NCBI GenBank assembly: GCA_964647595.1
Contig: CAZYGH010000005.1
Coordinates: 34,961 to 98,960 of the forward strand
Direction: 5' to 3'
Length of the DNA stretch: 64,000 nt
Source of the DNA: an uncultured Verrucomicrobiota bacterium
GTDB taxonomy: Bacteria; Verrucomicrobiota; Kiritimatiellia; CAIQIC01; Lenti-01
Position numbers and translations under genes: made by a program. The notes below the pieces were generated by a model. That model was not told the origin of the DNA, did no database searches, and saw only the letters and a list, made by a program, of their open reading frames with translations. Positions 5,806 through 21,883 of the stretch are shown piece by piece. Within the stretch, counting starts at the first letter, position 1. Every line of letters starts with the position of its first letter.

Positions 5806-6602
5806 GCGCAAAAGAACTCCCACCCAAAAAAGCCGCAATCGGTTGCCCGGGGTGGATGATGACCTTCGGCGACTGCATGTCGCTGCTGGTCACCTTCTTT
5901 GTGATGATGATCGCCTTCTCCTCCATGGAAGAAGAACGCTTGGCCGCCATGATTGGTGTGCTTCAAGGCGCCTTCGGCGTGTCCGATGTTCTCGAGCCCC
6001 CCGGTTTGGTGGAGCGCAAGGCCATCAGCGATACGGAAGTGGCCTCTCCAGAAGATCAGGATGCTTCCATCCGCGGAGAATCCGAACAACTCCATTTTTT
6101 AACGCCCGACGAAATGGCCAACGCGGTGCCCGATTTCATCAACGAAATTCGCCCCAATTCCGTCGAGCTCATGTCGGACCGCATCTTAATCCAAATGCTG
6201 GACGAAGGCCTCTCCATCGTGTTGGAAACAACAAACTTGTTTGTGGAAGGAACCGCCACGTGGCAAAAAGATTTTGGTCCGCTGTGGCAAGGCATCAGCG
6301 CCCTCCTTCAAGGACGCGGAAATGAAATCCGGATCACGTCCATGACCAGCGCCTCGGCCCCGGTTGAACATACCGTGGCCGCAACCAGTTGGGGCCTCGG
6401 CGTTGTTCGTGCTGACCACATTGCCCATGAACTGCAAACCGTCATGAAATCCCCCGCCTCCCGTTTTGGTGTGGGGGTTCAGGTCTATGACGATGAATCT
6501 AAAAATGCCCGAAATGACCACGTCGAAATCCTGATCATGGAAAAGGCAAAGGTCACCGATGTCGGCTCCGAAACCTCCTGGCCCAAGGGGATGTTCCGGT
6601 GA
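5802..6602 (+). CDS. motB: MotB-like stator protein (TM + plug region; no recognisable OmpA-like peptidoglycan-binding domain)
   Basis: ATGA overlap with motA. The N-terminus GWMMTFGDCMSLLVTFFVMMIAFSS is MotB TM/plug-like. The C-terminal half lacks the NxxLSxxRAxxV motif. Confidence 0.62.
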   Translation: MSAKELPPKKAAIGCPGWMMTFGDCMSLLVTFFVMMIAFSSMEEERLAAMIGVLQGAFGVSDVLEPPGLVERKAISDTEVASPEDQDASIRGESEQLHFLTPDEMANAVPDFINEIRPNSVELMSDRILIQMLDEGLSIVLETTNLFVEGTATWQKDFGPLWQGISALLQGRGNEIRITSMTSASAPVEHTVAATSWGLGVVRADHIAHELQTVMKSPASRFGVGVQVYDDESKNARNDHVEILIMEKAKVTDVGSETSWPKGMFR

Positions 6603-7306
6603 AAAAGCGATCTGCTCCAGCCAAAAAACCGGCGCCCACCGCTCCTGCCTATATGGCCCAATATACGGCCTTGATGACCATTCTGCTGGCCTTCTTCATT
6701 CTCATGCTCACCATGGGACACGAAAAAACATCCGGTTTCAAAGATGGCGTCGGCGATATCAAAAATCTGCTGGAGTTGTCCGGGGGCGGAAATGGATTGA
6801 TGAATTTCTGGCGCACCATGCGCAGACCCGGCCTTCCCATGAAGCTGAGCGTCGATGAGACACCCGGCGCCCAACTGGTCGGCTACGAAGAAGATGCCGT
6901 AGATCAGTTCAGTCTGGATGCCACCAGCATCAACAAAATTGGCTTCATGGATGACCGTCAAACCCTACGCCTACATTCCTCGATCCGGTTCGAACCGGGT
7001 CAAGTGCGGATGGATCGTAGCACCCAATACGCACTTGACCAGGCGATTGCCACAATTTACTCTCTCCAAGAATATAATGTTGTGGTGTGCGCATTGGTGA
7101 GTTCGGGTAAACCGGAAGCGGATCGCCTGTTGGCGGCCCAGCGAGCAGCGTGGCTGGTTCGTCATATCACGACCAGCGCGCAAATCCCGCGAGACCGAAT
7201 CCGTGCGCTCGGCCAAGTGGGTAGTCTAGTAGACAAGGAAAGTGGCGAACCCGTTGAGGTCTTGTTGTTGTTGCGCGATAAACGCGATGACATCAATGGC
7301 GTCTAA
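6599..7306 (+). CDS. Second MotB-like protein with degenerate OmpA-like C-terminus
   Basis: ATGA overlap with the preceding gene. The N-terminus AYMAQYTALMTILLAFFILML matches the MotB plug/TM consensus. The C-terminal ADRLLAAQRAAWLVRHITTSAQIPRDRIRALGQ resembles OmpA_C (LSxxRAxxVxxyL...Ri...G). Confidence 0.55.
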   Translation: MKKRSAPAKKPAPTAPAYMAQYTALMTILLAFFILMLTMGHEKTSGFKDGVGDIKNLLELSGGGNGLMNFWRTMRRPGLPMKLSVDETPGAQLVGYEEDAVDQFSLDATSINKIGFMDDRQTLRLHSSIRFEPGQVRMDRSTQYALDQAIATIYSLQEYNVVVCALVSSGKPEADRLLAAQRAAWLVRHITTSAQIPRDRIRALGQVGSLVDKESGEPVEVLLLLRDKRDDINGV

Positions 7307-7861: not shown

Positions 7862-8998
7862 ATGTCTGAACAACTCACACAAGCTGAAATCGATGCGCTA
7901 CGCAATGCCGTGCGCTCGGGAGAGATGGCGGTTGTTCAAGAAACCAAAACAGCCACGCCATCGGATGACATCAAAGTCATTTCCTACGACTTTCGCAAGC
8001 CGAAGCTCCTTTCGGCTGAACGGATGGTCAAGCTACAACTGGTCCACCAGCTCTTGCTCAAAAACCTGCAAACCATGCTCTTTTCGATGTTCAAGATTGC
8101 GGGGGAGTCCAAGCTCAGCGCACTGGAGCAGGTTTCCTACGGCGAATATATGCTGTCCCTCTCTCCCCCCACCTATCTGCTCAGCATTCAGGCCAATCCC
8201 GAAGTCGGCACCTTCGGCGTGGAATTAAGCCCTCCCATGGGTCAAATGTTGCTCGATATGCTCCTCGGCGGCGATGGCGTGGCCGCTTCCACAAGTCCCC
8301 CACACGAATTCAGCGCCTTCGAAATGGAAATCATGCGCACCCTGAGCGATCGGCTCTTGGAAGAGTTGGAGTTGGCGTGGAAGCAAATGCATGAGGTCAA
8401 TTTTCAAATCATTGCCCAAGGGGTATCGCCCGAACAAGTCCAAATCGCCCCGCCCGACACCCCTTGCCTGATTGCCGTGATTGATTTGCGGTTGAACGAA
8501 AAGTCCGTTCGAATGCAATTCTGCTATCCGTTCAACATGCTTCAGATCCTTTTTGAACGCGCGGAAACCACCCGCGACGATCAAGCCGGAAAACGGTCCG
8601 GCATCCGGCAAAAGGTGTTGCGCGCCGTGCAGGCCACCCCCCTTCCCTCCAATGTGGAACTGGGCCGGGCCCTGATGACCGCTGGCGAATTGGGCAGTTT
8701 GTGCGTTGGCGATGTCATCAAGCTGGACCAACCCACCGGTGATCCCCTTCGTCTCAATATCGGAGACCGAATGATTGGAAGCGCTTTCGTAGGCTCCCGC
8801 CGCGGCCGACTGGTCGCGGGCATCAACCACATCATGCGCCCCAACCAATCGCCTACCGACAAGCGACCGCCGACGCCGACGCCCGCCCCTACATCGGCGC
8901 CGACGCCCGCGCCCACCCCCTCCGCTGCCCCTCCCCGCCCACCGGTCCGCCCGCCGGAAAAACCTCAGCCCGATAAATCGAAAGGCCATCCATCATGA
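7862..8998 (+). CDS. fliM: Flagellar motor switch protein FliM (with Pro-rich C-terminal tail)
   Basis: Carries the N-terminal CheY-P binding motif LTQAEIDALR and the conserved ISYDFRKPKLLSAERMVKLQLVHQ... core. Confidence 0.9.
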   Translation: MSEQLTQAEIDALRNAVRSGEMAVVQETKTATPSDDIKVISYDFRKPKLLSAERMVKLQLVHQLLLKNLQTMLFSMFKIAGESKLSALEQVSYGEYMLSLSPPTYLLSIQANPEVGTFGVELSPPMGQMLLDMLLGGDGVAASTSPPHEFSAFEMEIMRTLSDRLLEELELAWKQMHEVNFQIIAQGVSPEQVQIAPPDTPCLIAVIDLRLNEKSVRMQFCYPFNMLQILFERAETTRDDQAGKRSGIRQKVLRAVQATPLPSNVELGRALMTAGELGSLCVGDVIKLDQPTGDPLRLNIGDRMIGSAFVGSRRGRLVAGINHIMRPNQSPTDKRPPTPTPAPTSAPTPAPTPSAAPPRPPVRPPEKPQPDKSKGHPS

Positions 8999-9435
8999 CC
9001 GACCCTAATCAAGATCCCTCCATCAGCGAAATCGAACGCCAAATGGCGGCCATGCTCGAAGAGAGCGAGCTGAGCGAAAAGCCGCAGCCCAAGACCCCTC
9101 CTCCCGCTTCCGGCCCCGTCATTCATCGGGTTGAAATGGATGAGGTCAAAACCGTGCCCCGTGCCGCTCCCGACCCAGACGGTAATCTGAAGCTCATTCT
9201 CGATATTGCGGTGGAAATCCGCGTCGAAGTCGGCAACTCGCGCCTCACCATCAGCGAGTTACTCAATCTGGCCCCCGGCTCCATCATTGAACTGGATCGC
9301 ACCGCCGGCAGCCCCGCCGACCTGCTGGTGAACGGCACCAAAATCGGCCAGGGCGATGTTGTTGTCGTCGACGAAAGCTATGGCATTCGCCTCACCAAGC
9401 TGGTCGATCCGCAGGACCGCATCAACTCGCTTTGA
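8995..9435 (+). CDS. fliN: Flagellar motor switch protein FliN
   Basis: The SpoA/FliN C-terminal domain (LILDIAVEIRVEVGNSRLTISELLNLAPGSIIELDRTAGSPADLLVNGTKIGQGDVVVVDESYGIRLTKL) is present. Confidence 0.87.
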   Translation: MTDPNQDPSISEIERQMAAMLEESELSEKPQPKTPPPASGPVIHRVEMDEVKTVPRAAPDPDGNLKLILDIAVEIRVEVGNSRLTISELLNLAPGSIIELDRTAGSPADLLVNGTKIGQGDVVVVDESYGIRLTKLVDPQDRINSL

Positions 9436-9471: not shown

Positions 9472-10191
9472 ATGAATGTGGCCATCATTCCGGCTCGGGG
9501 TGGAAGCAAGCGCATCCCGCGCAAAAACATTCGCCCCTTCAACGGGAAGCCCATCCTCGCCTATTCCATCGAAGCCGCCCAAGAATGCGGTTGTATCGAT
9601 CGCGTGATGGTCTCCACCGATGACCCCGAAATTGCCGATGTGGCCCGTTCCCTTGGCGCTGAAATTCCATTCCTCCGGCCCACCCACTTATCCGACGATC
9701 AGACCCATCTGGACGCCGTCCTCAGTCACGCCGTCCGCTGGCTCCTCGACCAGGGCCATGCCCCAGAATTTGTTTGCGGCATCTTTGCCACGGCCCCCTT
9801 CTTAACCGGCTCCCTCCTGCGCGAGGGCCTTCAACGACTCCAAGCCTCACCCGAAAAACAGTACGCCTTCGGTGTCGCCAAATTTCCCTTCCCAATTCAG
9901 CGGGCAGTTCGGATCACCCCCCTCGGTGGCATCGAACCCTTTCAACCCGATAGCATGAGAATGCGTTCGCAGGACCTTGAAGAAGCGTATCACGATGCGG
10001 GCCAATTCTTCTGGGGTCGGACAGAGGCCATCTTAAACCGCGCCTCCATTTTTTCACCCACTTCGATTCCCATCGTCATCCCCTCCCATCGGGTCCAGGA
10101 TATCGACACCCCCGAAGATTGGGCCCGCGCAGAATGGTTGCACAAGGCCCTCATGCTATCGGAGAACCATGCGCGCGGCCTTTCGAGTTGA
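9472..10191 (+). CDS. pseF: Acylneuraminate/pseudaminic acid cytidylyltransferase (CMP-nonulosonic acid synthetase, PseF/NeuA family)
   Basis: N-terminus MNVAIIPARGGSKRIPRKNIRPFNGKPILAYSI is typical of CMP-NeuAc synthetase-like (CTP_transf_3) enzymes. It is in the same operon as pseG and pseI. Confidence 0.8.
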   Translation: MNVAIIPARGGSKRIPRKNIRPFNGKPILAYSIEAAQECGCIDRVMVSTDDPEIADVARSLGAEIPFLRPTHLSDDQTHLDAVLSHAVRWLLDQGHAPEFVCGIFATAPFLTGSLLREGLQRLQASPEKQYAFGVAKFPFPIQRAVRITPLGGIEPFQPDSMRMRSQDLEEAYHDAGQFFWGRTEAILNRASIFSPTSIPIVIPSHRVQDIDTPEDWARAEWLHKALMLSENHARGLSS

Positions 10192-11242
10192 TGCTTCTGC
10201 TTCCATCGGCAGCGGCCACCTCATGCGCTGTTTGGCTTTGGCGGAAGCCTTGCGCCGCAGGGAGATTTCCTCCACGTTTCTGTGCCGGGCCTTCCCCGAC
10301 CATGCCGGAGACGTAATTCTCCGCCAAGGGTTTGATCTTCACCTCTTGCCCATCGGCACCCAAACGGCATCGCCCCCGCCCCCTCATGCGGCATGGTTGG
10401 GCGCCAGCCAAGAAGAGGATGCCGCCGCATGTGCCTCACAATGGCCCACCGGAACGGACATCCTCGTCGTAGACCACTACGCGTTGGACATCCGCTGGGA
10501 AACCTCCATGCACCGTCTTTGTTCCATTCAACTAGCCATCGACGACCTAGCCGACCGCCATCACGCTTGCGATGTCTTGCTCGATCAGAATCTTGCCCCC
10601 CAAATGGAAAGTCGCTACGCGGGCTTCCTTCCTGCCACCTGTCGCTCTCTTCTCGGCCCCTCCTATGCGTTGCTCAGTCCCGCCTTTGCCCCGGCGGCCT
10701 CACTGGCAACGGAACGAACCACCGTCCGACGACTTCTCGTATTTTTTGGCGGCGGCGACACCGACAATCTGACGTGCCGCGCCCTTCGCGAACTGGCGTC
10801 TGTGAACCTCCCCGCCGATGTCGTGATCGGATCCGCCAATCCGCATCGCACCGAGGTTGCGTCGCTTTGCACAAGCTCCGACAGACTCTGGACTCTACAC
10901 GTGCAAACGCCCCACATGCCGGACCTCATGCTTCAAGCCGATTTGGCCTTGGGTGCCGGTGGCAGTAGCCATTGGGAGCGGTGCCTACTGGGTTTGCCCG
11001 CCTTGGTCGTCACCACCGCCGCCAATCAACTCCCCTCCACCCGTATGGTGGCAGAGCGCGGCGCCTGCCGCAATCTCGGCACGGCTCAGTCCTTGACCGA
11101 CGGCCAGTTTCGACAGGGCGTTGAAGAACTGCTTCAGAATCCCCACACGCTTCGCGCCATGAGCCGCGCCGCACAAGCGCTCATGCCCGATGGCAACGGC
11201 GCGGAACGTGTCGCATCTACCCTTCTGGAACACATACGATGA
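10169..11242 (+). CDS. pseG: UDP-2,4-diacetamido-2,4,6-trideoxy-beta-L-altropyranose hydrolase PseG-like (GT28-like)
   Basis: N-terminus MRAAFRVDASASIGSGHLMRCLALAEAL matches the PseG start consensus (FR.DAS..IG.GH.MRC). Its position between pseF and pseI supports the call. Confidence 0.72.
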   Translation: MRAAFRVDASASIGSGHLMRCLALAEALRRREISSTFLCRAFPDHAGDVILRQGFDLHLLPIGTQTASPPPPHAAWLGASQEEDAAACASQWPTGTDILVVDHYALDIRWETSMHRLCSIQLAIDDLADRHHACDVLLDQNLAPQMESRYAGFLPATCRSLLGPSYALLSPAFAPAASLATERTTVRRLLVFFGGGDTDNLTCRALRELASVNLPADVVIGSANPHRTEVASLCTSSDRLWTLHVQTPHMPDLMLQADLALGAGGSSHWERCLLGLPALVVTTAANQLPSTRMVAERGACRNLGTAQSLTDGQFRQGVEELLQNPHTLRAMSRAAQALMPDGNGAERVASTLLEHIR

Positions 11243-12321
11243 ACTCCATCCATATCGGTCACCACCTCATCGATGCCAACCATCCGCCCTTCATCATTGC
11301 GGAAATGTCAGGCAATCACGGACAGAGTCTCGATAAAGCCCTACGCCTCGTCGACGCCGCCTCAGAGGCCGGCGCACATGCCTTGAAGTTGCAAACCTAC
11401 ACCGCCGACACCATGACGCTGGACATCCGCGAGGGCGACTTTTTCATCGATGATCCTCGAAGCCTCTGGCGCGGAAATTCTCTCTATGACCTCTACAAAC
11501 TCGCCTATACTCCATGGGAATGGCATGCCCCCCTCTTTGAGCGTGCCCGTGCCCGCGGACTTCTCGCCTTCAGCACACCCTTCGACGCCACCGCCGTGGA
11601 CTTTTTGGAATCCCTTCATGTTCCCTGCCACAAAATTGCCTCATTTGAAAATGGCGACATTCCCCTCATCCGAAAAGTCGCCGCCACCGGCAAGCCCCTC
11701 ATCATGTCCACGGGTACTGCCACCCTCGCCGAATTGACCGAAGCCGTCGCCGCAGCACGAGAAGCCGGTTGCAAAGATCTCATTTTACTGAAATGCACCA
11801 GCAATTATCCCTCCGAGCCCAAGGATGCCAACCTCGCCACCCTTCCCCACCTGGCCGAAAAATTCAACTGCGTAGCTGGCCTCTCCGATCACTCCCTCGG
11901 CACCGCCGTGGCCGTAGCTGCGGTTGCCCTCGGTGCTCGCGTGGTGGAAAAACATCTGACCCTTTCCCGTGCCGATGGCGATGTGGATTCCGCCTTTTCC
12001 CTCGAACCCACCGAACTGGCCCAGTTGGTTCAAGACACTCGAATAGCTTGGCAAGCGCTGGGACACGTCAGCTTTGACCTCACCGACAGCGAGCAAGGCT
12101 CCCGAAAGCATCGGCGCAGTCTCTATATCGCCCAAGACATTGCCGCAGGCACTCCCCTCACGCTCCAAAATGTGCGTGCCATACGCCCCGGCGCCGGTCT
12201 GCCCCCCAAGCATCTCGACAAAATCCTTGGCTGCGTGGCCACCCGTGATTTGAAAAAAGGCACTTCCTTGAGCTGGGATTTGTTCCGCCCCACCACGTCG
12301 GAGACTTCCCCCCATGCCTAA
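11239..12321 (+). CDS. pseI: Pseudaminic/N-acetylneuraminic acid synthase (NeuB/PseI family)
   Basis: FIIAEMSGNHGQSLDKALRLVDAASEAGAHALKLQTY is NeuB-family. The C-terminal SAF/antifreeze-like domain (LTLQNVRAIRPGAGLPPKHLDKILG) is present. Confidence 0.85.
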   Translation: MNSIHIGHHLIDANHPPFIIAEMSGNHGQSLDKALRLVDAASEAGAHALKLQTYTADTMTLDIREGDFFIDDPRSLWRGNSLYDLYKLAYTPWEWHAPLFERARARGLLAFSTPFDATAVDFLESLHVPCHKIASFENGDIPLIRKVAATGKPLIMSTGTATLAELTEAVAAAREAGCKDLILLKCTSNYPSEPKDANLATLPHLAEKFNCVAGLSDHSLGTAVAVAAVALGARVVEKHLTLSRADGDVDSAFSLEPTELAQLVQDTRIAWQALGHVSFDLTDSEQGSRKHRRSLYIAQDIAAGTPLTLQNVRAIRPGAGLPPKHLDKILGCVATRDLKKGTSLSWDLFRPTTSETSPHA

Positions 12322-13315
12322 CTCCTCCCCACCCTCTTTTGCCGCAGGCGGAAACTGGCTCATCACCAGCGCCAGCGCCAAAGTAGATTTGGTTCGGCGC
12401 ATGCGCCAAGCGCTGAATGCCAAGGAACTTCGCCTATTTTCCACCGATCAATCCAGCCTGTCTGCGGCGTTTCATTTCAGCGATGGCCATTTTCTTCTTC
12501 CGCCCATTGAGTCCAGCGACTTCCTCGATCAACTGATCGCAACCTGCCACGCCCACCACATCCGCGTCCTTCTGCCCACACGCGATGCCGACCTGCGATT
12601 TTTTTCCGCTCACCGCGCACCGCTGGAAAAAGCCCACCTGTGGCCACTGGTGTCCGACTCCCAAACCATCGACATCTGCCTCGATAAAATTCAATTCGAC
12701 GATCACTGCTGCCGCCATCACCTACCCGTTCTTCCTCGCATCCACGAGCCAACCCCTTCCGTTTTCCCCTGCTTTGTTCGGAACCGCATCGGCTCCGCCG
12801 GTCATGGCGCCCAACGGGTTCCCCATGCGGATGCCATGCGAATCCTCTACGGCCCGTCCCCGTGGCCCAACCTCCTCATTCAACCCTGTTGCACCGACAA
12901 AGAATACACCATCGATGCGCTCTTCGACTTGGATGGCCAACCCGTGCAATGGATTTCGCGGGAACGCATCCGCACCAAGGCTGGCGAATCCACCGTGGGT
13001 CGCACCGTTTCCATCCCCGCGATCGACGCCCTCCTTCCATCCCTCGCCCACTCGCTCCATCTCATCGGACCCGCCACCATTCAGGTGTTTTATTCCCAAC
13101 AAAATGGCCTCCATCTCATCGAGGTGAATCCCCGATTCGGCGGAGCTGCCGCCCTTGGCATCGAAGCCGGATTAGATACCCCCCGCCGACTCGTATCCCT
13201 CGCGCAAGGCGACACCGAAGATTTCCTGCGCACCCGACCCCTTGAAATTGGAATGACCATGCTTCGCTACAGCCAGGACATTTTCATCCATGAAAATACG
13301 ACCCCGACAACCTGA
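12314..13315 (+). CDS. ATP-grasp domain protein (putative nonulosonic-acid modifying ligase)
   Basis: C-terminal HLIEVNPRFGGAAALGIEAGLDTP is the ATP-grasp Mg/ATP-binding motif. The gene is translationally coupled within the pse operon. Confidence 0.6.
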   Translation: MPNSSPPSFAAGGNWLITSASAKVDLVRRMRQALNAKELRLFSTDQSSLSAAFHFSDGHFLLPPIESSDFLDQLIATCHAHHIRVLLPTRDADLRFFSAHRAPLEKAHLWPLVSDSQTIDICLDKIQFDDHCCRHHLPVLPRIHEPTPSVFPCFVRNRIGSAGHGAQRVPHADAMRILYGPSPWPNLLIQPCCTDKEYTIDALFDLDGQPVQWISRERIRTKAGESTVGRTVSIPAIDALLPSLAHSLHLIGPATIQVFYSQQNGLHLIEVNPRFGGAAALGIEAGLDTPRRLVSLAQGDTEDFLRTRPLEIGMTMLRYSQDIFIHENTTPTT

Positions 13316-13328
13316 AACCACCAGCCCT

Positions 13329-14003
13329 ATGTTGTCCATTCTGGAGCCCTATACCCTCTTCTTTGTCGACATGGACGACACCCTGTTTGAAGAGCGCCAG
13401 TACGTGCTGAGCGGATTCCACGCCATTGCCAACTATGTCGCCCGATGGGGCCTCCGCTCCGACGAGGTGTGGCTGTTTCTTCAGCAGCACTTCGAAACAT
13501 CCGGCCGCGAGAAAATTTTCGATCATTTACTTCAACACTTCTTCGGAACCGTTCGCTCCGAACTGATTCAAGAATTGGTCTGGGTCTATCGCGACCATGT
13601 TCCGCAAATTCAACTCTATCCCGATGCAGCCGAAACCCTGAAAGCCTTGCGCTCGAAAGGCCGCGTCATCATCGTCACCGATGGCCTCACGTCCGTCCAA
13701 GAACGCAAATTTGCTGCCTTGGAATTGGACCGCCTCGTGGATCGCGTGGTGTTTTGCGACGCCATGGGTTTCCCCAAGCCCGACCCCAGTTCGCTTCGTG
13801 GCCGAGTCGAACAAGGCGTACGGAACGCCCTGATCATTGGCGACCGACCCGACCACGATCTCGCGTTGGCGGCCGCTCTTGGCCTCGATTCTGTTCGTGT
13901 GCGCACCGGCCGATTCCATGATGTAGACAACCAACCCTGGAAGCCCATTGCCGACCTGCCGAAGATTTCTTCTTTGCTCGGCCCGGACCCAACGGACACC
14001 TGA
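13329..14003 (+). CDS. HAD-superfamily hydrolase/phosphatase
   Basis: HAD motif I FFVDMDDTLF sits right after the internal ATG, and the distal GDRPDHD motif is present. The upstream ORF extension overlaps the ATP-grasp gene, so the internal start was chosen. Confidence 0.68.
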   Translation: MLSILEPYTLFFVDMDDTLFEERQYVLSGFHAIANYVARWGLRSDEVWLFLQQHFETSGREKIFDHLLQHFFGTVRSELIQELVWVYRDHVPQIQLYPDAAETLKALRSKGRVIIVTDGLTSVQERKFAALELDRLVDRVVFCDAMGFPKPDPSSLRGRVEQGVRNALIIGDRPDHDLALAAALGLDSVRVRTGRFHDVDNQPWKPIADLPKISSLLGPDPTDT

Positions 14004-14004
14004 C

Positions 14005-14652
14005 ATGGCCGTTCCACTCAAGCGAAAACACTTTTACGTGCTGGAGAAGCACTATACCGATCTGGCGGTTCGGCTCCTCCCGCCTCTCGCCAAAATCGGC
14101 CTGACCCCCAATCAAGTCACCCTCGCCAATTTACTCAACGGCCTTGTCATTATGACCGCCATTGCCGGGCACCACTACATCCTCGCCGCCCTTCTCACCC
14201 AGCTATACCTGTTCCTCGATATTCTCGATGGGAATTTGGCTCGCTATCGAGAAATGTCCACCCCGCTCGGCGCCGTCTTGGATAAAATCGGCGACCGCTT
14301 TTTTTACAATGGCGTCATGATCGTCCTCGGCCTCACCACCCCCGTCCACTGGATCTGGATCGTGCTCTTTTTGCTGGCTCACAACCTGCACTCCATCGCC
14401 GCCACTTACTACATTGTTCCCACCATCCGAACCCTGCCCACCTTCAAACGGTTCGGCCTGAAAAAAGTATGGATGAATCACGGCTACATCCTCGGCATGG
14501 ACCTGTCCACCCAAGACCTGCTGATCTCTCTCCTGATTGTCACGCCAGGGCGCGTCTGGATTCTCCCCGCCGTCACCATCCTCTATCTGGTGGACCTGAT
14601 CTATCGCCTCATCGAGCTGGAACAAAACCGCCGCCTCTCCCCTGCGGCATGA
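14005..14652 (+). CDS. CDP-alcohol phosphatidyltransferase family membrane protein
   Basis: Carries the family motif D-G-x2-A-R-x8-G-x3-D-x3-D (DILDGNLARYREMSTPLGAVLDKIGD) and multiple TM helices. The internal ATG (MAVPLKRKH) was chosen as start. Confidence 0.7.
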   Translation: MAVPLKRKHFYVLEKHYTDLAVRLLPPLAKIGLTPNQVTLANLLNGLVIMTAIAGHHYILAALLTQLYLFLDILDGNLARYREMSTPLGAVLDKIGDRFFYNGVMIVLGLTTPVHWIWIVLFLLAHNLHSIAATYYIVPTIRTLPTFKRFGLKKVWMNHGYILGMDLSTQDLLISLLIVTPGRVWILPAVTILYLVDLIYRLIELEQNRRLSPAA

Positions 14653-14700
14653 CATCTGCTTGAACAGGACGCAGATCGAGATCGTAAAAAGGATGAACCT

Positions 14701-15114
14701 ATGAAAACCGTCATCACCTATGGAACCTTCGACCTTTTTCATGTGGGACATTTACGCCTGCTGGAACGCGCGCGTTCGCTGGGGGATCGCTTGGTGGTCG
14801 CGGTCTCGACCGACGAATTCAACTCCGGCAAAGGCAAACGAACCCTCATCCCCTACCGGGATCGATCCGCCATCGTTCAGGCCATTCGTTGCGTCGATAT
14901 TGTCATTCCTGAAACCAACTGGGCGCAGAAAACTGATGATATTCATCAATTCAACGTCACCACCTTCGTCATGGGCGAAGACTGGAAAGGCAAATTTGAC
15001 GAGCTGAAAGAACTGTGCGAAGTCGTTTATCTACCCCGCACCGAAGGCATTTCCACCACCGAACTGAAGCAATCTATGGCCCTGCTAGGACAAATCATCC
15101 GAGAACTGCATTAA
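14701..15114 (+). CDS. Cytidylyltransferase, glycerol-3-phosphate cytidylyltransferase (TagD)-like
   Basis: N-terminus MKTVITYGTFDLFHVGHLRLLERAR carries the (H/T)xGH nucleotidyltransferase motif. Size (137 aa) matches TagD. Confidence 0.8.
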   Translation: MKTVITYGTFDLFHVGHLRLLERARSLGDRLVVAVSTDEFNSGKGKRTLIPYRDRSAIVQAIRCVDIVIPETNWAQKTDDIHQFNVTTFVMGEDWKGKFDELKELCEVVYLPRTEGISTTELKQSMALLGQIIRELH

Positions 15115-15124
15115 TGGCCGCACG

Positions 15125-16234
15125 ATGAGTTTGTCCCGTCCGATCCAGTTGGCCTTTTGCATCGACGATCGCTTTGCCCCTCCTCTCGCAACGCTGTTGC
15201 ACAGTTTGCAAACGCATTCACGCGCGGACCTGGGCGTTCAAGCCCATGTCGTCGGAAACCTGTCCTCCCCCATCCGCGACAAACTCTCCACCCTCTCTCG
15301 CCCCGATTTCGAAATTCATTTTCACACTCAGGTTCCCGACTTCAGCCACCTCCACATCAGCCCCATCTACGCCACCCGACTCAGCCAAGCCACCTATCAT
15401 CGATTGGCCCTCCCCGCCCTCCTCCCCAACGTCAACCGCATCTTGTATCTGGATGCCGACATGATCGCGCTGGACGATTTTTCCACACTGTGGAAAACCA
15501 ATCTTCAAGGCCGCTCCACCGGCGTCGTGCAGGACTACTTTTTGAGCCATCAAGAACGCTGGAAAGTCTTGAGCCTTCCGTTCCCTGAATATTTCAATGC
15601 CGGCATGCTCCTTATGGATCTGGATCAGTGGAGGTCTCAAACCATCAGCGAACGCGTCGCACAGGCCGTCGCCGAACATCCGAATTGGGAATATAACGAC
15701 CAAGACGGCTTAAACGTAGTGCTAAATGGCCAATGCCAATTCTTGGATCCGCGATGGAACGCCACGACAACGCGGCTCCAAGGAAATGCCGTTGACCACC
15801 CTGTTTTCATTCACTTCACCGGCCAAGAAAAACCGTGGCACGTTTCATCCGTCCATCCCTTTCGGGAAGCCTATCGCGAACACAAGCAGCAAACACCGTG
15901 GCGCGACGAACCCCTGACGCATTTTTTGGATCACGAAGACCAGCGCATCCTTCAATCGCTTCAGACTTCCCTTCCCCAAGGCGGCGCCATCGCCATCTAC
16001 GGATGCGGCGCACGGGGACGCCGTCTCGCCCTCTTCCTCCAAGCCCACCACCCGGCATTCTCCATCCGCTTCATGGTAGACCGAGCCGCTTCCAACGAAT
16101 GGAATGGAATCCCCGTCTATCGGCAACTGCCCGAGGAAACCCTCGACGCACTTCTCATCGCCTCCATTCCCTATCGCGACGAAATCCTCAAGAGCCTTCC
16201 CCCCGCCCTTCTGTCACAGGTCAACATCATTTAG
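15125..16234 (+). CDS. Family 8 glycosyltransferase with C-terminal Rossmann-like extension
   Basis: The GT8 DxD region RILYLDADMIALDDFSTLW is present. The C-terminal AIAIYGCGARGRRLALFL region has a GxGxxG-like motif. Confidence 0.68.
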   Translation: MSLSRPIQLAFCIDDRFAPPLATLLHSLQTHSRADLGVQAHVVGNLSSPIRDKLSTLSRPDFEIHFHTQVPDFSHLHISPIYATRLSQATYHRLALPALLPNVNRILYLDADMIALDDFSTLWKTNLQGRSTGVVQDYFLSHQERWKVLSLPFPEYFNAGMLLMDLDQWRSQTISERVAQAVAEHPNWEYNDQDGLNVVLNGQCQFLDPRWNATTTRLQGNAVDHPVFIHFTGQEKPWHVSSVHPFREAYREHKQQTPWRDEPLTHFLDHEDQRILQSLQTSLPQGGAIAIYGCGARGRRLALFLQAHHPAFSIRFMVDRAASNEWNGIPVYRQLPEETLDALLIASIPYRDEILKSLPPALLSQVNII

Positions 16235-16638
16235 CCCGGCCGCCCTTGGCTAGCAGCTAATTCGCGCTGCACCACCGTGAGAAGGCCCATCACATCGCCT
16301 TTCTCTAAACTGTCCTGCGCGCCCGCACGAATGGAAGCCTTTCGGGCCTCCTCATTCACCGAACCCGAAACCACAATGAACGGAAGATGTGGGAACCGAG
16401 CTCTCACCAGTTCAAGAGCCGCAGAAGAGCTGAAGCGGGGCATGTTGTGGTCCGACACCACGAGGTCCCATGCCTTTTCCTCAAAGGCCACAGCCAAGTC
16501 CTCTGCGTTATCCACGCGCCGCGAATCCAGCTCATAGCCGCCGGATCGGAGCTGCTCTTCCAGAAGCATGGCATCCAGCTCCGAATCATCCACAATCAAT
16601 AACCGGATTTTCATTTTTTCGGCGGAAGAATCCGTCAT
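16231..16638 (-). CDS. Response regulator, stand-alone receiver domain
   Basis: RLLIVDDSELDAMLL...LVVSDHNMP...FIVVSGS matches a CheY-like receiver with the expected Asp and Lys positions. Confidence 0.75.
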   Translation of the reverse strand: MTDSSAEKMKIRLLIVDDSELDAMLLEEQLRSGGYELDSRRVDNAEDLAVAFEEKAWDLVVSDHNMPRFSSSAALELVRARFPHLPFIVVSGSVNEEARKASIRAGAQDSLEKGDVMGLLTVVQRELAASQGRPG

Positions 16639-16674
16639 GTCTATTCTCCTCCATCTCAACCGATCGGGTCGCCA

Positions 16675-17121
16675 TCAAGGTCCAGCCGGAATGGGAGAGG
16701 GCTCGTTGATCACGCCCCAAAACTGGCCCAACTCGCGAACCGCCGTCATGAAATCCAAAAAATCCACGGGCTTCACAACAAACGCATTCACTCCATAGGA
16801 ATAGCATTTCATTAAATCGGAATCCTCGCGGGAAGACGTGAGCATGACCACCGGGATCACTCGTAACACGGGATCGCTCTTGATGACCTTCAACACTTCG
16901 AGTCCGTCCACTTTTGGCATTTTGATGTCCAACAAAATCAACGCAGGGGGACCACTGGTGCGCGAGGCATAGGAACCTCGGCGAAACAGAAAATCCAACG
17001 TCTCGGCGCCATCCGCCATTCGCTCAATGGGGCAAACCACCTTCCCTTCGCGCAAGGCCGCAATGGTCAATTCGGCATCATGTGGATTATCTTCGGCAAG
17101 CAACACATAGCGGTCGATCAT
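16675..17121 (-). CDS. Response regulator, stand-alone receiver domain
   Basis: VLLAEDNPHDAELT...LILLDIKMPKVDGLEVLKVIK...VVMLTSS matches a receiver domain. Its start overlaps the kinase stop (ATGA). Confidence 0.8.
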   Translation of the reverse strand: MIDRYVLLAEDNPHDAELTIAALREGKVVCPIERMADGAETLDFLFRRGSYASRTSGPPALILLDIKMPKVDGLEVLKVIKSDPVLRVIPVVMLTSSREDSDLMKCYSYGVNAFVVKPVDFLDFMTAVRELGQFWGVINEPSPIPAGP

Positions 17122-20100
17122 GGGGATGCCTCCTTTTCTGATTTTGCGAAATTCATGGGCAGAGAAAAATAAAACGACGCCCCCTTGTCCACTTCGCCTT
17201 CGGCCCATGTGCGCCCACCGTGACGCAACACGATTCGGCGTACGTTGGCCAACCCAATGCCCGTGCCCTCGAACTCCGATTCACCATGAAGGCGCGAAAA
17301 CACGCCAAACAACTTGTTGGCATATTTCATATCAAAGCCGGCGCCATTATCGCGCACGCACACAATGATCTCGTTGCCTTCGGTCTTGGCCGAAATATCG
17401 ATTCGGGCCACTTCACGCTTGCCCGAATATTTAACGGCATTCCCCAGCAGGTTTGCCATCACCTGTCGCAACAACGGCCGATCGGCGTGCACCTGCGGCA
17501 ATTCGCCAATCGTCCACTCGATCGAGCGCCCCTTCATTTCCAGCTCAAGTTCTTTTTTGCACTCCTCGACCATCTCGGCCAATGGAATGGGCTCGACGTT
17601 AATCTGGGCGCGACCCGTGCGGGAGAAGGACAGCAAGTCATCAATCAACGTGCCCATCCGCTTGGCGGCACCCGCAATCACGTCCAGATAACGAAAGCCG
17701 GTTTCGTCGAGCTTGCCTTTGGCGTTGCCTTGCAGCAACTGAACAAAACCCGACACATGGCGCAACGGGGCACGCAAGTCATGAGACACCGAATACGAGA
17801 ACGCTTCCAATTCTTTGTTTGCGCCAACAAGCGCCTCTTCGCTCTTCAACAGAGAGGCCTCCACGATGCGTCTGCGCCGAATCTCCGCCGCCATCCGCCG
17901 ATTCCAATACGTGAACAATCCCAGCAAGGCGGCAATGCCCGCCACATATTTATAGAGCTTCGCATAGTCAATGCGCTGATCGTAGACCACCGTCATCCAT
18001 CGCCGGGCCATCGTGATTTTTTCCTCTTCGTCGATCCCCTCCATCGCCTTCGTTAAAATCTGCGCCAAGATTTTGGTGTCGGAGCGAACCGCAAAGGCCG
18101 GTTGAAACACAAAGTCAAAATCGCCCGCCACCTTAATGCGCGAATGCCCACCGAGCTGGATGTAATAGCTCCCGACCAGTAGAGGCGCCACAAAGGCATC
18201 CAGTTCCCCCGCCTCCAACTGCTGAAGCGCACGGGGAGCATCATAAACGGTAGAAACATTCAACCCTGGCACCCGCTGCTGAAGCTGGGTGTCCATCCCA
18301 TAGCCCACCAGTACCGCCACCCGCAGATCTTTCAACTCCGAAATGTTGGCAACGGGCTTCGTGTTTTCATGAGTAAAAATCGCAGAAGGAAGAGCCTGAT
18401 AGGGCGCCGAGAATTCAATCTCCAACTGCTTTGCACTGGCTCGGTTCAGGGAGGAAAGCATATCCACCTCCCCATCGCGCAATTTCGCCTGAGCCTGACG
18501 CCAGGAGGGAATCGCCACATGCTGAAACGTCACGCCCAGCGCATGGCCAAAACGATCCAAATAGTCGTATCCAATGCCCGCAAATCCACCGCTCGAATCC
18601 GTGAACTCCAGCGGCGCCAAATGCGGATTGCTTCCCACCCGAATCACCGGATTTTTTTCCAGCCATTCTTTTTCCTCGGGCGTAAGCTGGACCCACGACA
18701 ACTCCGTCATCTGGTTCCACGTCTCTCCGCCCCAGCGTTCAAAAACGGCCTGCACCGCTGCCACCGGCATGGAGGCCATGGCGGCATTCAAGACCGAGGC
18801 CAACAGAGGCAAATCCGCGCGTACACCCATGCACGAAACCGATTCAATTTCCCACACGGTTCCCTGCACCTGCAAGTCCATGTACATCTCGTGTGACAAC
18901 GTCCAAACCGCCATGGCACGACCACCCACAAAGGCATCCGCCTGATGAGTCGAGACCGCCTCCAAGGCATTGCGCACATTTGGATATTCCTTCAGGCGAA
19001 GACCGTGCCGATTTTTCTTCAAATGCGCAGCCGCCGGGAAGCCGGATACCACTGCCACTGTACGATTGGAAAGGCTATCCAAGCCCACGAAATGCCCCTC
19101 GCCCTTTCGGCTAACCATCACGTTGGGAATGTTGGCGTAAGGCTTTGTACACAACATTCCCGTTTCAGCCTGAGTAGGCGAGGCATCCAAAATCGCCTCC
19201 AAATTCCCCGCACGAAACTCTTTCTCCAACTGCGCCCGCAACCCTGTCACCCATTCAATCCGGCCATCCAGACGCTCATTGGCATACTCAACAAAATCCA
19301 CCCCCAACCCGCGCACGTCGCCCGACAAATCCACATAGCTCATCGGAGGCACATCGGTGGGCACCCCCATGCGAATTCTAGGATTCCCCGCCAACCACTC
19401 CTTCTCTGCGGAACCGACCTCGAAGCGTCCTCCCGTTTCCACCGCCATCGAAAACCACTTGGCGCGCAAATATCGTCCATGATGTTGGAGCGCATCGCCC
19501 AATGCCCGGTCCAAAATACCGGCCAGTTCCGGCAACTCTTTGCGCACCCCGATGCAGAGGGCCGAGGGCACATCATCGTTGCGCCCTTGAACATGCAAAT
19601 TAGACAACATCTCCCTCGCTAACAGATACAGCGCGACCGCTCGATTTCCCATAAAGACCACCGAGTCACCCCGAGAAACCGCGTCTAACGCCGCGCTGGC
19701 ATGGTCATACGTTCGGATACGGGCCCGCGATTGTTTCTGCTCCAACCATCTTGCCTCGGGCCGCCCTTTTTCCACAGCCACCGAAGTGCCCGTCAGTTGT
19801 TTTTCATTCCTGAAAAATCGGCTTCCACCCATCCGTGCCACAAACACCACCGGAACGTCCAGATAGGCCTGGGTATACGTCAGGACATCATCGTCACCGC
19901 CGCCGGGCGTGGCATCCATCACCGCATCCAGTTCACCCGCTTTCAACCGCGTCATCAGTTCACTTGAAGTCCCCGATTCAAGATGAATTTTCCCCCCAAG
20001 CCACACATTCATCTCCTCGAGCAAATCCACGCCAAACCCAACCGGGTTGCCATGTCGATCCGTGAAATGCAAGGGCGGATAATCTGCCATCACTCCGATG

Positions 20101-20252
20101 CGAATACTCTCCCGGTCGGCCAACCAAACCTGCTGGCCATCTTCGAGCTGAAACTCAGCCTCTGGTTTTGCCGCCGCACCGATTGCCCACAACAGGCAAA
20201 TGGCAACCTGCACCCAACCCCGCCAACGAAAAGAAATCTGGATGGTTCTCAC
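17118..20252 (-). CDS. Sensor histidine kinase with three tandem periplasmic solute-binding (SBP_bac_3-like) domains
   Basis: Signal/TM segment, three repeated roughly 230-aa amino-acid-binding-protein-like modules, then TM, coiled coil, HisKA (FSYSVSHDLRAPLRHVSGFVQLL) and HATPase_c (GTGIGLANVRRIVLRHGG) domains. Confidence 0.82.
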   Translation of the reverse strand: MRTIQISFRWRGWVQVAICLLWAIGAAAKPEAEFQLEDGQQVWLADRESIRIGVMADYPPLHFTDRHGNPVGFGVDLLEEMNVWLGGKIHLESGTSSELMTRLKAGELDAVMDATPGGGDDDVLTYTQAYLDVPVVFVARMGGSRFFRNEKQLTGTSVAVEKGRPEARWLEQKQSRARIRTYDHASAALDAVSRGDSVVFMGNRAVALYLLAREMLSNLHVQGRNDDVPSALCIGVRKELPELAGILDRALGDALQHHGRYLRAKWFSMAVETGGRFEVGSAEKEWLAGNPRIRMGVPTDVPPMSYVDLSGDVRGLGVDFVEYANERLDGRIEWVTGLRAQLEKEFRAGNLEAILDASPTQAETGMLCTKPYANIPNVMVSRKGEGHFVGLDSLSNRTVAVVSGFPAAAHLKKNRHGLRLKEYPNVRNALEAVSTHQADAFVGGRAMAVWTLSHEMYMDLQVQGTVWEIESVSCMGVRADLPLLASVLNAAMASMPVAAVQAVFERWGGETWNQMTELSWVQLTPEEKEWLEKNPVIRVGSNPHLAPLEFTDSSGGFAGIGYDYLDRFGHALGVTFQHVAIPSWRQAQAKLRDGEVDMLSSLNRASAKQLEIEFSAPYQALPSAIFTHENTKPVANISELKDLRVAVLVGYGMDTQLQQRVPGLNVSTVYDAPRALQQLEAGELDAFVAPLLVGSYYIQLGGHSRIKVAGDFDFVFQPAFAVRSDTKILAQILTKAMEGIDEEEKITMARRWMTVVYDQRIDYAKLYKYVAGIAALLGLFTYWNRRMAAEIRRRRIVEASLLKSEEALVGANKELEAFSYSVSHDLRAPLRHVSGFVQLLQGNAKGKLDETGFRYLDVIAGAAKRMGTLIDDLLSFSRTGRAQINVEPIPLAEMVEECKKELELEMKGRSIEWTIGELPQVHADRPLLRQVMANLLGNAVKYSGKREVARIDISAKTEGNEIIVCVRDNGAGFDMKYANKLFGVFSRLHGESEFEGTGIGLANVRRIVLRHGGRTWAEGEVDKGASFYFSLPMNFAKSEKEASP

Positions 20253-20388
20253 AATTCGTTGACGATAAGCAATGGCCTGCCTCTTTGCCAGAAATATTCA
20301 CCCGTCTCACCTATTTTTCCATTCCCAGTTCCGTTGCCATTTGGGCAGCCCGGTGGTAGCCTAACAAGGTAATTTCTTTGTACCCCCT

Positions 20389-21453
20389 ATGTTGCGCCAC
20401 CCCTCCACATTTCAACCTCTTTTCAACTGGAGAGAAATCACCTTCCTCCTCCGACTTCTGGTCATCTGGGCAGCCATGGGGTGCATCGTGCCCCCCCCCC
20501 GCGAGGCCCTCGGCTGGAACGGTCCTCAACACATCCAAATCACGCAAGCCGCAAGCCGTCATGTTCCTCCCGAAATGGCTGCCTTTGAAGCCTTCGCCGC
20601 CCCCATAGCCATCCCCAGCACCTATCCTGACATTTGGCGCGCCACAGATTTTGCTGAAGGCCCCCGCCACTATTTCAAACCCGATTACCTGCCCTCTTCC
20701 TGCGATCTGACCCGCCTTCCCACCGACCGTATGGAAGCCTTCCGCTCCCAACTCAGCCTGACTCGTCCCAGCGAAATCGGGATGGCCCCCTGGTCCATTC
20801 TCAACTTGATGCAAGGCTTCACCTCCGCCATGAAAACCAACGACTGGGTGTGGGCCGCCCGCTGCGCCGCCGCCCTGAGCCACTATGTGGCCGATGTGCA
20901 CATGCCCTTCCACTGCACCCGCAATCACGATGGCCAAGAAACAGGCCAAAATGGCATTCACATGCGAGTCGAGAGCAACGTAACGGAATTCTTTTTCCAG
21001 CCCGAAAGCATCACCCCTTCGCCGCCTGTCTATCTGGAAGATCCCTTCCATTCGATCTTGCGCTGGGCCCAAGACTCCCTCCTCCGCATGCCCACCCTGC
21101 TGGACGCCGACCGTATCGCCACACAGGAAATCGGCGACACCCAATCTCAAGCCTATTATCTCACGCTTTGGAAGCTGGCAGGCCCCGTCCTCATCGAGCG
21201 GGCCAGCGCCGCCGCCACCGACCTCTCTTCCATCTGGTACACCGCTTGGGTCGATGCCGGCAAGCCGTCCATCCCGGAACCTTTGGCTGAAATCCCCCCC
21301 TTCTCCGTTTTTTCCGGTGTCGGTATCACGCCTCCGGAACCCCAAGCCCCTCCCATCATTCGCGAGAAACCTCCCATCGACGTCCTGTTCTGGGGCACCC
21401 TGTTCCTCTTTGTCGTGGTGTCCATCACCGCCATTCGCCACTACGTTAAATAA
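20389..21453 (+). CDS. S1/P1 nuclease-like zinc-dependent nuclease (Zn-dependent PLC/P1 superfamily), membrane-anchored
   Basis: Signal peptide, then LGWNGPQH (the Trp1/His of S1-P1 mature N-terminus) and HYVADVHMPFHCTRNHD (the HxxGDxHQPLH-like Zn-ligand block). A C-terminal TM helix (VLFWGTLFLFVVVSITAI) is present. The antisense ORF is G-rich, so the plus strand was chosen. Confidence 0.55.
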   Translation: MLRHPSTFQPLFNWREITFLLRLLVIWAAMGCIVPPPREALGWNGPQHIQITQAASRHVPPEMAAFEAFAAPIAIPSTYPDIWRATDFAEGPRHYFKPDYLPSSCDLTRLPTDRMEAFRSQLSLTRPSEIGMAPWSILNLMQGFTSAMKTNDWVWAARCAAALSHYVADVHMPFHCTRNHDGQETGQNGIHMRVESNVTEFFFQPESITPSPPVYLEDPFHSILRWAQDSLLRMPTLLDADRIATQEIGDTQSQAYYLTLWKLAGPVLIERASAAATDLSSIWYTAWVDAGKPSIPEPLAEIPPFSVFSGVGITPPEPQAPPIIREKPPIDVLFWGTLFLFVVVSITAIRHYVK

Positions 21454-21469
21454 TCTCCACCTTCGCCGC

Positions 21470-21883
21470 TTACGCGTCGGCAAATTCCTTTTTCAACGCC
21501 TCCAACAAGCGCGCCGATTCCTGTTCGACCGAGGCCAGCAAACGGCGCGCCTCCTCCAGCTTTCCAGCATTCGCCCGCGACTCCATTTGCAGCGCCACGG
21601 AATGCAAAGCAATGCCGCCCATATTGCCCGCTCCGCCCTTGATCGTGTGGGCCTGCAAGCGTAGCGCCTCGGCATCCCCCTCCGCCACCACCCGACGCAG
21701 CGCCGTGATTTGCTCGGGATGCATCTTCATATAGATTTGGGCCATGCGGCAGGCCAACTCTCGCAGCCCCCCCATTCGCTTCAGCATGCCCGCCACATCC
21801 AACACTACAGGCGACTCCTCCATGGGCGTTGCGGTGGGTTCGTCATTCATCCGTTCACCGTTCAAGGAGAAAAATGAACTCAC
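21470..21883 (-). CDS. Histidine phosphotransfer (Hpt) domain protein
   Basis: Carries the HTIKGGAGNMG motif with the phospho-accepting His. The start may be at an internal ATG (MNDEPT or MEESP). Confidence 0.75.
   Translation of the reverse strand: MSSFFSLNGERMNDEPTATPMEESPVVLDVAGMLKRMGGLRELACRMAQIYMKMHPEQITALRRVVAEGDAEALRLQAHTIKGGAGNMGGIALHSVALQMESRANAGKLEEARRLLASVEQESARLLEALKKEFADA

Follow-up and report, generated by a model that had tools for sequence, protein, structure and literature searches.

A CDP-alcohol phosphotransferase and a TagD-type cytidylyltransferase in a pseudaminic acid gene run attached to flagellar genes point to a probable polyol-phosphate tailoring step

In a 64-kb stretch of DNA from an uncultured Verrucomicrobiota bacterium (contig CAZYGH010000005.1, the whole stretch being referred to as the window), genes of pseudaminic acid (Pse) biosynthesis follow directly on flagellar genes and are joined, towards the end of the run, by a gene for a class I CDP-alcohol phosphotransferase (hereafter the transferase) and an adjacent gene for a TagD-type cytidylyltransferase. 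Here we analyse the probable role of this pair, and of the ATP-grasp ligase and HAD hydrolase genes that precede it. All coordinates are positions in the window, and L-numbers denote the comparison loci that we collected. On the + strand the gene order is fliM-fliN-pseF-pseG-pseI-ATP-grasp-HAD-CDP-OH-TagD-GT8, where CDP-OH is the transferase gene:

7862-8998, + strand: fliM, flagellar switch gene (Pfam FliM, FliMN_C)
8995-9435, + strand: fliN, flagellar switch gene directly upstream of the pse run (Pfam FliM, FliMN_C)
9472-10191, + strand: pseF, CMP-pseudaminic acid synthetase (TIGR03584, 312 bits against a cutoff of 205.7)
10169-11242, + strand: pseG, UDP-sugar hydrolase of the pseudaminic acid pathway (TIGR03590, 282.5 bits against a cutoff of 153.55)
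11239-12321, + strand: pseI, pseudaminic acid synthase (TIGR03586, 486 bits against a cutoff of 340.25; Pfam NeuB and SAF)
12314-13315, + strand: ATP-grasp ligase (Pfam PylC-like_N / ATPgrasp_Ter)
13290-14003, alternative ATG at 13329, + strand: HAD-IA hydrolase (PF00702, HAD_2)
14005-14652, + strand: class I CDP-alcohol phosphotransferase, 215 aa (PF01066, 62.9 bits against a cutoff of 22)
14701-15114, + strand: TagD-type glycerol-3-phosphate cytidylyltransferase (TIGR01518, 167.8 bits against a cutoff of 165.4)
15125-16234, + strand: GT8 retaining glycosyltransferase, last gene of the run (PF01501, 159 bits)

The eight genes after fliN (9472-16234) are tightly packed, pseF starts 36 nt past the end of fliN, the junctions within the run overlap or span at most 48 nt, and a single nucleotide separates the HAD stop codon from the transferase start codon. 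As no terminator-like site was found on the + strand from fliN to the end of the GT8 gene either, co-transcription of the sugar genes with the flagellar genes is plausible. Further upstream lie fliI, fliK, flgD, a flgE-like gene, motA, two motB-like genes and fliL. A first-pass annotation of the window had singled out the HAD, transferase and cytidylyltransferase genes as three consecutive genes, and all three are confirmed as + strand open reading frames (ORFs), the HAD gene with the start at 13329 given there or with the alternative at 13290. It had also placed them between pseI/ATP-grasp and a GT8 gene, downstream of the flagellar genes, which the Pfam and equivalog scores and the short spacing after fliN bear out; pseF, pseG and pseI all exceed their NCBIfam equivalog cutoffs.

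The transferase carries a complete signature motif, D72xxD75G76xxA79R80x8G89xxxD93xxxD97, all eight residues of which are invariant in 16 members of its subfamily, as are R149, K153 and R201. These three basic residues would fit an anionic acceptor, by their likeness to the two conserved arginines on transmembrane helices (TM) 4-6 which hold the acceptor phosphate in PIP synthase (PMC4634129). In an AlphaFold model (pLDDT 84.8) the protein forms a membrane core of six helices plus a juxtamembrane helix, with helices at residues 12-30, 35-54, 58-81, 87-111, 116-143 and 167-211, and Foldseek returned AF2299 as the best match (TM-score 0.71-0.72), then PIP synthases and IPCT-DIPPS, with weaker matches to PgsA, PSS and CPT1. 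AF2299 binds CDP-glycerol and, like DIPP synthase, handles no lipid (Clarke et al. 2015, PMC4634129). Soluble acceptors are used by those members of the family that have six TM helices, whilst lipid-acceptor enzymes carry three or four extra helices (PMC4634129). At the level of homology the protein is a functional-looking class I CDP-alcohol phosphotransferase, and its architecture is that predicted for soluble substrates.

These features bear directly on a lipid route, in which the transferase would be PgsA-like (using CDP-diacylglycerol) or Kennedy-like (joining CDP-glycerol and diacylglycerol) and would yield a phospholipid or a lipid-modified flagellin. The Pfam family name contains 'phosphatidyltransferase', some homologues are labelled PGP synthase, and a phospholipid role has been proposed for a similar gene in Geobacillus by De Maayer and Cowan (PMC5109656). 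Yet no lipid-synthase equivalog cutoff is even approached by the transferase (pgsA, 23.5 against 109.1; pssA, 27.3 against 107; ClsA, 30.3 against 240), its six-TM core lacks the extra helices of lipid-acceptor enzymes, its nearest fold is that of an enzyme which processes no lipid, and the donor genes adjoining it and its relatives make soluble CDP-polyols, so that we regard a lipid product as very improbable. The transferase also falls below the NCBIfam cutoffs for PIPS (45.1 against 170) and AIPS (64.5 against 180), and does not belong to the IPCT/DIPP synthases (NF041135, 35.3 bits against a cutoff of 580); no inositol-phosphate synthase was found among the neighbours of the run.

The neighbouring cytidylyltransferase (PF01467), a single-domain protein with the length usual for TagD (about 130 aa), scores only just over the TIGR01518 cutoff, and it aligns over its full length (residues 1-127) with Bacillus subtilis TagD (1COZ, E=4e-50), with both the HxGH motif (as HVGH) and the RTEGISTT motif aligned. 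It may safely be predicted to synthesise CDP-glycerol, and the transferase would then be a CDP-glycerol:acceptor glycerophosphotransferase. Neither TarI/J nor NTP_transf_3 homologues, which adjoin the transferase in other lineages (see below), were found in the window by tblastn.

To place the transferase among its relatives, a subfamily profile was searched against 1.84 billion cluster representatives, with the limit of the subfamily set at E<=1e-30. The search recovered 21,444 proteins of the CDP-OH family but only 24 clusters (at 50% identity) within that limit, and the transferase group is therefore small and distinct; a word-indexed search found 88 subfamily members. We collected the neighbourhoods of 17 independent lineages and scored them with hidden Markov models (HMMs), phmmer and Pfam. 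In 15 of the 17, spanning Verrucomicrobiota, Halanaerobiales, Clostridia and Bacilli, the transferase gene lies among nonulosonic-acid genes (pseI/NeuB, pseF, pseG, pseB, pseC), and many of these neighbourhoods also hold flagellin, Maf, FliD/FliS or other flagellar genes. The first-pass annotation had offered a compatible solute as an alternative product, and this is disfavoured by the glycan setting of those 15 lineages; the neighbourhood comparison that it proposed places the orthologues outside phospholipid and osmolyte contexts across the 17 lineages, two of which (L011 and L009) stand apart from sugar-acid loci.

The arrangement is not a chance juxtaposition, because a second Verrucomicrobiota metagenome-assembled genome (MAG; L010) has the identical eight-gene order with 75-94% protein identity, and close variants occur in L104 and L105. 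Four Verrucomicrobiota lineages place the genes in flagellar or chemotaxis surroundings: after fliM-fliN in the window/L010 and in L104, after flgK-rpoN in L105, and near che genes in Pelagicoccus (L002), with the fliM-fliN-pseF junction repeated in L001, L010 and L104. The Bacillota members carry the gene within flagellin glycosylation islands of the classic type, in Halanaerobiales (L003-5/L017), Clostridium neonatale (L006-8), L107, Lysinibacillus sphaericus (L019), Calidifontibacillus oryziterrae (L020) and Eubacterium MSJ-21 (L018).

In 13 of the 17 lineages a nucleotidyltransferase gene set directly adjoins the transferase gene, and its identity differs between lineages: TagD in five (window/L010, L105, L002, L106 and L107), TarI in another five (C. 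neonatale, L019, L020, L108 and L016), accompanied in four by TarJ, as expected for CDP-ribitol, and an NTP_transf_3 enzyme in three (Halanaerobiales, L014 and L015). Lysinibacillus (L019) possesses both kinds of donor gene, TarI-TarJ abutting the transferase gene and TagD flanked by two TagF-like genes, and each donor gene set therefore appears to travel with its own transferase. We also looked for residues that split TagD-linked from TarIJ-linked transferases, and position 168 of the alignment (ca. 14506-14508 in the window), which adjoins an invariant GMD motif, was the sole candidate, with Ser alongside TagD and NTP_transf_3 and Gly/Phe alongside TarIJ. It is a possible donor-specificity position, however phylogeny confounds the split and the candidate was set aside as too weak to use.

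The first-pass annotation had read the HAD, transferase and cytidylyltransferase genes as a triad making a phospho-alcohol diester. The cytidylyltransferase and transferase hold up as a pair, recurring in Pse/flagellin islands across phyla, whereas the HAD gene lacks support as third member and instead tracks the ATP-grasp gene. The HAD protein has all four catalytic motifs (DMDDT, VTDG, KPDP and GDRPDHD, for DxDxT, T, K and GDxxxxD) and scores 61 bits to PF00702 (cutoff 26.4), and reaches no equivalog cutoff, the best being TIGR02253 (72 bits against 169.75). The ATP-grasp protein has as its best PDB match 2pn1, of unknown function (E=1.7e-23). An HMM built from the orthologues of the window HAD was applied to the 17 lineages: this type of HAD was found only alongside the ATP-grasp gene, in eight lineages, and went undetected in the nine without that ATP-grasp gene (in L106 there is only an unrelated Pfam HAD ~9 kb away, and in L018 only a distant ATP-grasp relative ~6 kb away). 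The ATP-grasp gene directly adjoins the HAD gene in seven of the eight.

A metagenome scan anchored on the ATP-grasp gene gave 80 loci, ten of which have a HAD gene immediately adjacent, usually followed by pseI. The transferase gene is present in one of these ten (L035, a Halothermothrix duplicate), and the other nine carry none on the recovered sequence, many of them being short contigs; in two, L029 and L061, its absence is clear, with 7-10 kb of sequence recovered to either side. The pair lies at 6684-8286 in L029 and 9998-11692 in L061, and also occurs in L038, L039 and L042. ATP-grasp and HAD are a second, independent accessory module of Pse loci, and because the HAD gene tracks the ATP-grasp gene, and the two occur without the transferase in L029 and L061, the HAD gene probably does not belong to the transferase unit. 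Most likely the HAD protein is a phosphatase working with the ATP-grasp module, and the ATP-grasp protein would be a carboxylate-amine ligase that N-acylates a pseudaminic acid intermediate. Wherever both modules occur they are contiguous (eight of eight lineages), and they may share a target site on the sugar. The function of the ATP-grasp/HAD pair in nonulosonic-acid biosynthesis appears to be undescribed, and the papers on Tannerella Pse5Am7Gra name no genes for the glyceroyl group. We considered the pair as a substitute for PseH, an attractive idea because the window, L004 and L019 show no acetyltransferase gene, and rejected this as a general explanation, since a GNAT gene lies just upstream of it in L029, L038, L039 and L042.

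The triad could also be read as a three-step DIPP/PGP-like unit, in which the CDP-glycerol from TagD is joined by the transferase to a phospho-alcohol, for instance glycerol-3-phosphate or a phosphorylated hydroxy-acid, and the HAD enzyme strips the terminal phosphate, the diester then being attached to a glycan, perhaps by the ATP-grasp enzyme, or freed as a solute (diglycerol phosphate, for example). Phospho-alcohols are indeed the acceptors of the closest curated and structural relatives of the transferase (AIP synthase, PIP synthase, IPCT-DIPPS), whose products then have to pass through a phosphatase, an acceptor phosphate could be held by the invariant Arg/Lys residues, and both the 1-nt spacing of the HAD and transferase genes and the constant contiguity of the two modules suit such a unit. 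The distribution of the HAD gene argues the other way, with its absence by HMM from the nine transferase lineages that lack the ATP-grasp gene and the occurrence of ATP-grasp/HAD pairs in pse loci without a transferase. The variety of donor genes (glycerol, ribitol, other) would be odd for a single defined solute, and 15 of the 17 lineages have the gene in glycan loci rather than in osmolyte contexts, and we consider a unit of this kind unlikely.

The same metagenome scan showed that in some 20 of its 80 loci ATP-grasp relatives lie beside de-N-acetylases of the PIG-L family (L027, L028, L050, L054, L057, L059, L060, L063, L064, L068, L071, L073, L075, L076, L078, L081, L082, L029 and L106), which suggests a deacetylate-then-reacylate route for amino sugars.

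The neighbourhood pattern and the AF2299-like fold therefore make transfer of glycerol-phosphate to a soluble acceptor of the Pse pathway the best reading of the transferase, and the phospho-polyol decoration of a Pse glycan suggested in the first-pass annotation stands in this form, as the reading best suited to the recurrent pairing in Pse/flagellin islands. We think it fairly probable that the run as a whole is a pseudaminic acid biosynthesis and tailoring operon attached to flagellar genes, with the TagD/transferase polyol-phosphate step as the best explanation of the pair. In this scheme TagD, judged by homology, would turn CTP and sn-glycerol-3-phosphate into CDP-glycerol, and the six-helix transferase would be an inner-membrane protein whose polar active site faces the cytoplasm. 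There it would move glycerol-phosphate from CDP-glycerol onto a hydroxyl of a soluble, probably anionic acceptor, as the genomic context suggests, releasing CMP. The most plausible acceptor would be pseudaminic acid itself, CMP-Pse or the N-acyl side chain of the sugar, with the transfer taking place before flagellin is glycosylated by a Maf- or FlmG-type enzyme; the glycoprotein is a further candidate. The product would be a phosphodiester-linked glycerol-phosphate decoration (+154 Da). Relatives paired with TarI/TarJ (CDP-ribitol) or NTP_transf_3 would by the same scheme install other phospho-alcohols. On a Pse intermediate the ATP-grasp and HAD enzymes would most likely build or trim an N-acyl group of an unusual kind, through ligation of a carboxylic acid at the cost of ATP and a phosphatase step, and, more speculatively, because the two modules are always contiguous when they co-occur, this side chain may itself serve as the acceptor for the transferase. 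A wider proposal is possible, and we make it tentatively: that the small cross-phylum subfamily is a hitherto uncharacterised class of sugar-tailoring enzymes, which would put teichoic-acid-like polyol-phosphates (glycerol-phosphate, ribitol-phosphate or others, according to the adjacent nucleotidyltransferase) on nonulosonic acids on their way to flagellin, at the stage of the nucleotide sugar or free sugar and at the membrane face, with ATP-grasp/HAD building a new hydroxy-acyl N-substituent of Pse as the attachment point.

Several points weigh against a glycerol-phosphate tailoring step on flagellar Pse. Our literature search found no flagellin glycan with Pse-phosphoglycerol, and pseB, pseC, maf and flagellin homologues were not found in the window by tblastn, nor is pseH present in it. 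With no maf or flagellin gene at hand, we infer a flagellin target from the position of the run and from its relatives alone; pseB, pseC and pseH presumably sit elsewhere in the genome. Two relatives with ~63% identity lie outside any sugar-acid context: in L011 (9983-15026, a Verrucomicrobiota MAG) the transferase gene stands among polyamine/carboxynorspermidine-type genes, with a GH101-like protein, NamZ and an NTP_transferase-kinase fusion (MurU/AmgK-like), from which the subfamily may have a second role, and in L009 it is the neighbour of purK, and a few kb away are TagF-like and GT4 genes and a fragment of TagD. L104 has the transferase without an adjacent TagD, and in L105 and L019 TagF-like enzymes could be the chief users of CDP-glycerol. 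The HAD enzyme could dephosphorylate the product of the transferase on top of another role. Lastly, a membrane enzyme would have to act on a cytoplasmic sugar, which is plausible by the precedent of DIPP synthase.

The absence of maf and flagellin genes from the window also fits another surface target for the same polyol-phosphate chemistry, either a Pse-bearing lipopolysaccharide (LPS) or capsule or a teichoic-acid-like polymer, the flagellar neighbourhood then being merely positional. Pse occurs in the LPS and capsules of many bacteria, the operon ends with a GT8 gene of the LPS-glycosyltransferase type, and L009 and L105 hold TagF-like and GT4 genes typical of wall polymers. Such a target is nevertheless improbable in our view, as the fliM-fliN and flgK-rpoN junctions place the genes directly after flagellar genes in the four Verrucomicrobiota lineages, the Bacillota members lie between flagellin, Maf, FliD and FliS genes, and the run in the window has no flippase, polymerase or initiating-transferase gene.

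The proposed tailoring of flagellar Pse by a polyol-phosphate has its closest functional parallels in two studied flagellin systems, the Type A locus of Clostridioides difficile 630 (CD0240-CD0244) and the b-type locus of Pseudomonas aeruginosa PAO1 (PA1088-PA1091), where phosphodiester decoration of flagellin is supported by mass spectrometry of mutants (PMC10714395, PMC11833859). There sugar-phospho-(N-methyl)threonine arises through three enzymes: one of the HAD family, a nucleotidyltransferase for which CDP-threonine is the proposed product, and a TagF-like phosphotransferase (PMC10714395, PMC11833859). The window shares with these flagellin glycosylation islands the logic of HAD, nucleotidyltransferase and phosphotransferase. 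The enzymes differ, however: their phosphotransferase is soluble and TagF-like whilst that of the window is a class I membrane CDP-alcohol phosphotransferase, their donor is a proposed CDP-(N-methyl)threonine made by an NTP_transferase-type enzyme as against CDP-glycerol from a TagD-type enzyme, their HAD is PSP/ThrH-like whereas that of the window is not ThrH-like by score (17.3 bits against a cutoff of 133), and their base sugar is GlcNAc or a deoxyhexose rather than Pse. No PF04464 gene or methyltransferase is present in the run of the window. PA1088-PA1091 was considered as a homologous cluster and rejected, the enzyme families being different and the logic alone being common to both.

In Archaeoglobus fulgidus, AF2299 and IPCT-DIPPS resemble the window transferase in fold, signature motif, six-TM core and use of a soluble CDP-alcohol donor, but share only ~22% identity with it. 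The archaeal enzymes carry an N-terminal cytidylyltransferase-like domain where the window has a separate TagD-type gene, and serve osmolyte synthesis in hyperthermophiles, in contrast to the Pse/flagellar islands of mesophilic bacteria in which the window type is found. Wall teichoic acid enzymes (TagD/TarI/TarJ and TagB/TagF/TarL) likewise use CDP-glycerol or CDP-ribitol donors to form a polyol-phosphate diester on a sugar hydroxyl; their transferases belong to PF04464, a family unrelated to PF01066, and, unlike wall teichoic acid loci, the window has no genes for a lipid-linked primer or export, and the predicted acceptor is a nonulosonic acid. TagF-like genes do coexist with the transferase gene in L019 and L105: TagF-like glycerophosphotransferases stand beside TagD in Pse-type flagellar islands at 5203-8165 in L019 and 11214-15889 in L105 (a Verrucomicrobiota relative), which hints at teichoic-acid-like chains on flagellin glycans.

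The first-pass annotation had known of no report of this combination of genes in flagellin glycosylation, which proved too strong. In 2016 De Maayer and Cowan described tagD and 'pgs' in a flagellin glycosylation island of (Para)geobacillus thermoglucosidans DSM 2542, from genomic evidence only, and proposed phospholipid modification (PMC5109656); the analogous logic in C. difficile and P. aeruginosa is likewise on record (PMC10714395, PMC11833859). By its published description, on which alone the likeness is drawn, the Geobacillus island resembles the window in having TagD and a CDP-alcohol phosphatidyltransferase-family gene in a Pse-type island without pseH, and the report contains neither the ATP-grasp/HAD link nor the cross-phylum distribution. 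The fold and the donor genes described here argue against the phospholipid reading of that pair. We found no paper tying CDP-alcohol phosphotransferases to flagellin glycosylation biochemically, and a 2026 survey of Clostridium Pse makes no mention of genes of the window type.

Phosphodiester flagellin decorations and CDP-polyol chemistry are already known, and the proposed step is for that reason no conceptual surprise; the module is conserved, rare and cross-phylum. CDP-alcohol phosphotransferases are textbook enzymes of phospholipid and, in archaea, osmolyte synthesis, and a subfamily acting on glycan sugars would, if confirmed, widen the range of the family, give it its first role outside lipids and osmolytes, add a new charged flagellar decoration and explain genes that pipelines now annotate as lipid synthases. 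With a polyol-phosphate on Pse the filament would become more negatively charged and would bear epitopes like those of teichoic acids, which could change filament assembly, recognition by phages or the immune system and surface interactions. As the module is present in cultivable species (Lysinibacillus sphaericus, Calidifontibacillus oryziterrae, Clostridium neonatale, Pelagicoccus), the prediction is directly testable. The ATP-grasp/HAD and ATP-grasp/PIG-L pairs point to uncharacterised routes of N-acylation for nonulosonic acids, an area which has been described as poorly understood (PMC5378307).

Other features of the islands and of the window are recorded here. The small domain PF22674 ('C2185-like_N') recurs in flagellin glycosylation islands (L004 8230-9273; L107 2964-12340; L108 3653-9953; L105 11214-19424; L061 14461-20587), where its fusion partners are glycosyltransferases, methyltransferases, TagF-like enzymes, an acetyltransferase, a DltD-like protein and a second CDP-alcohol transferase; these proteins may share it as a docking or targeting unit. 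The GT8 gene, which is kept in L010 only, encodes a C-terminal extension of ~120 aa (15875-16231) with a glycine-rich 'IAIYGCGARG' stretch, for which no significant Pfam match was found even at E<=1. Upstream, the two successive MotB-like genes after motA (5802-7306) have the MotB_plug domain only, the second with a weaker match. Converging on the glycosylation operon from the - strand is a signalling cluster (16231-21883) of two single-domain response regulators, an Hpt protein and a 1044-aa histidine kinase with periplasmic SBP_bac_3 domains. Within it the coding strand of 20311-21483 is ambiguous between a 390-aa ORF on the - strand and a 354-aa + strand gene call in the public assembly, neither of which has a Pfam match. 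Throughout the 64 kb, GC skew is markedly and evenly negative (~-0.15 to -0.38), regardless of gene strand.

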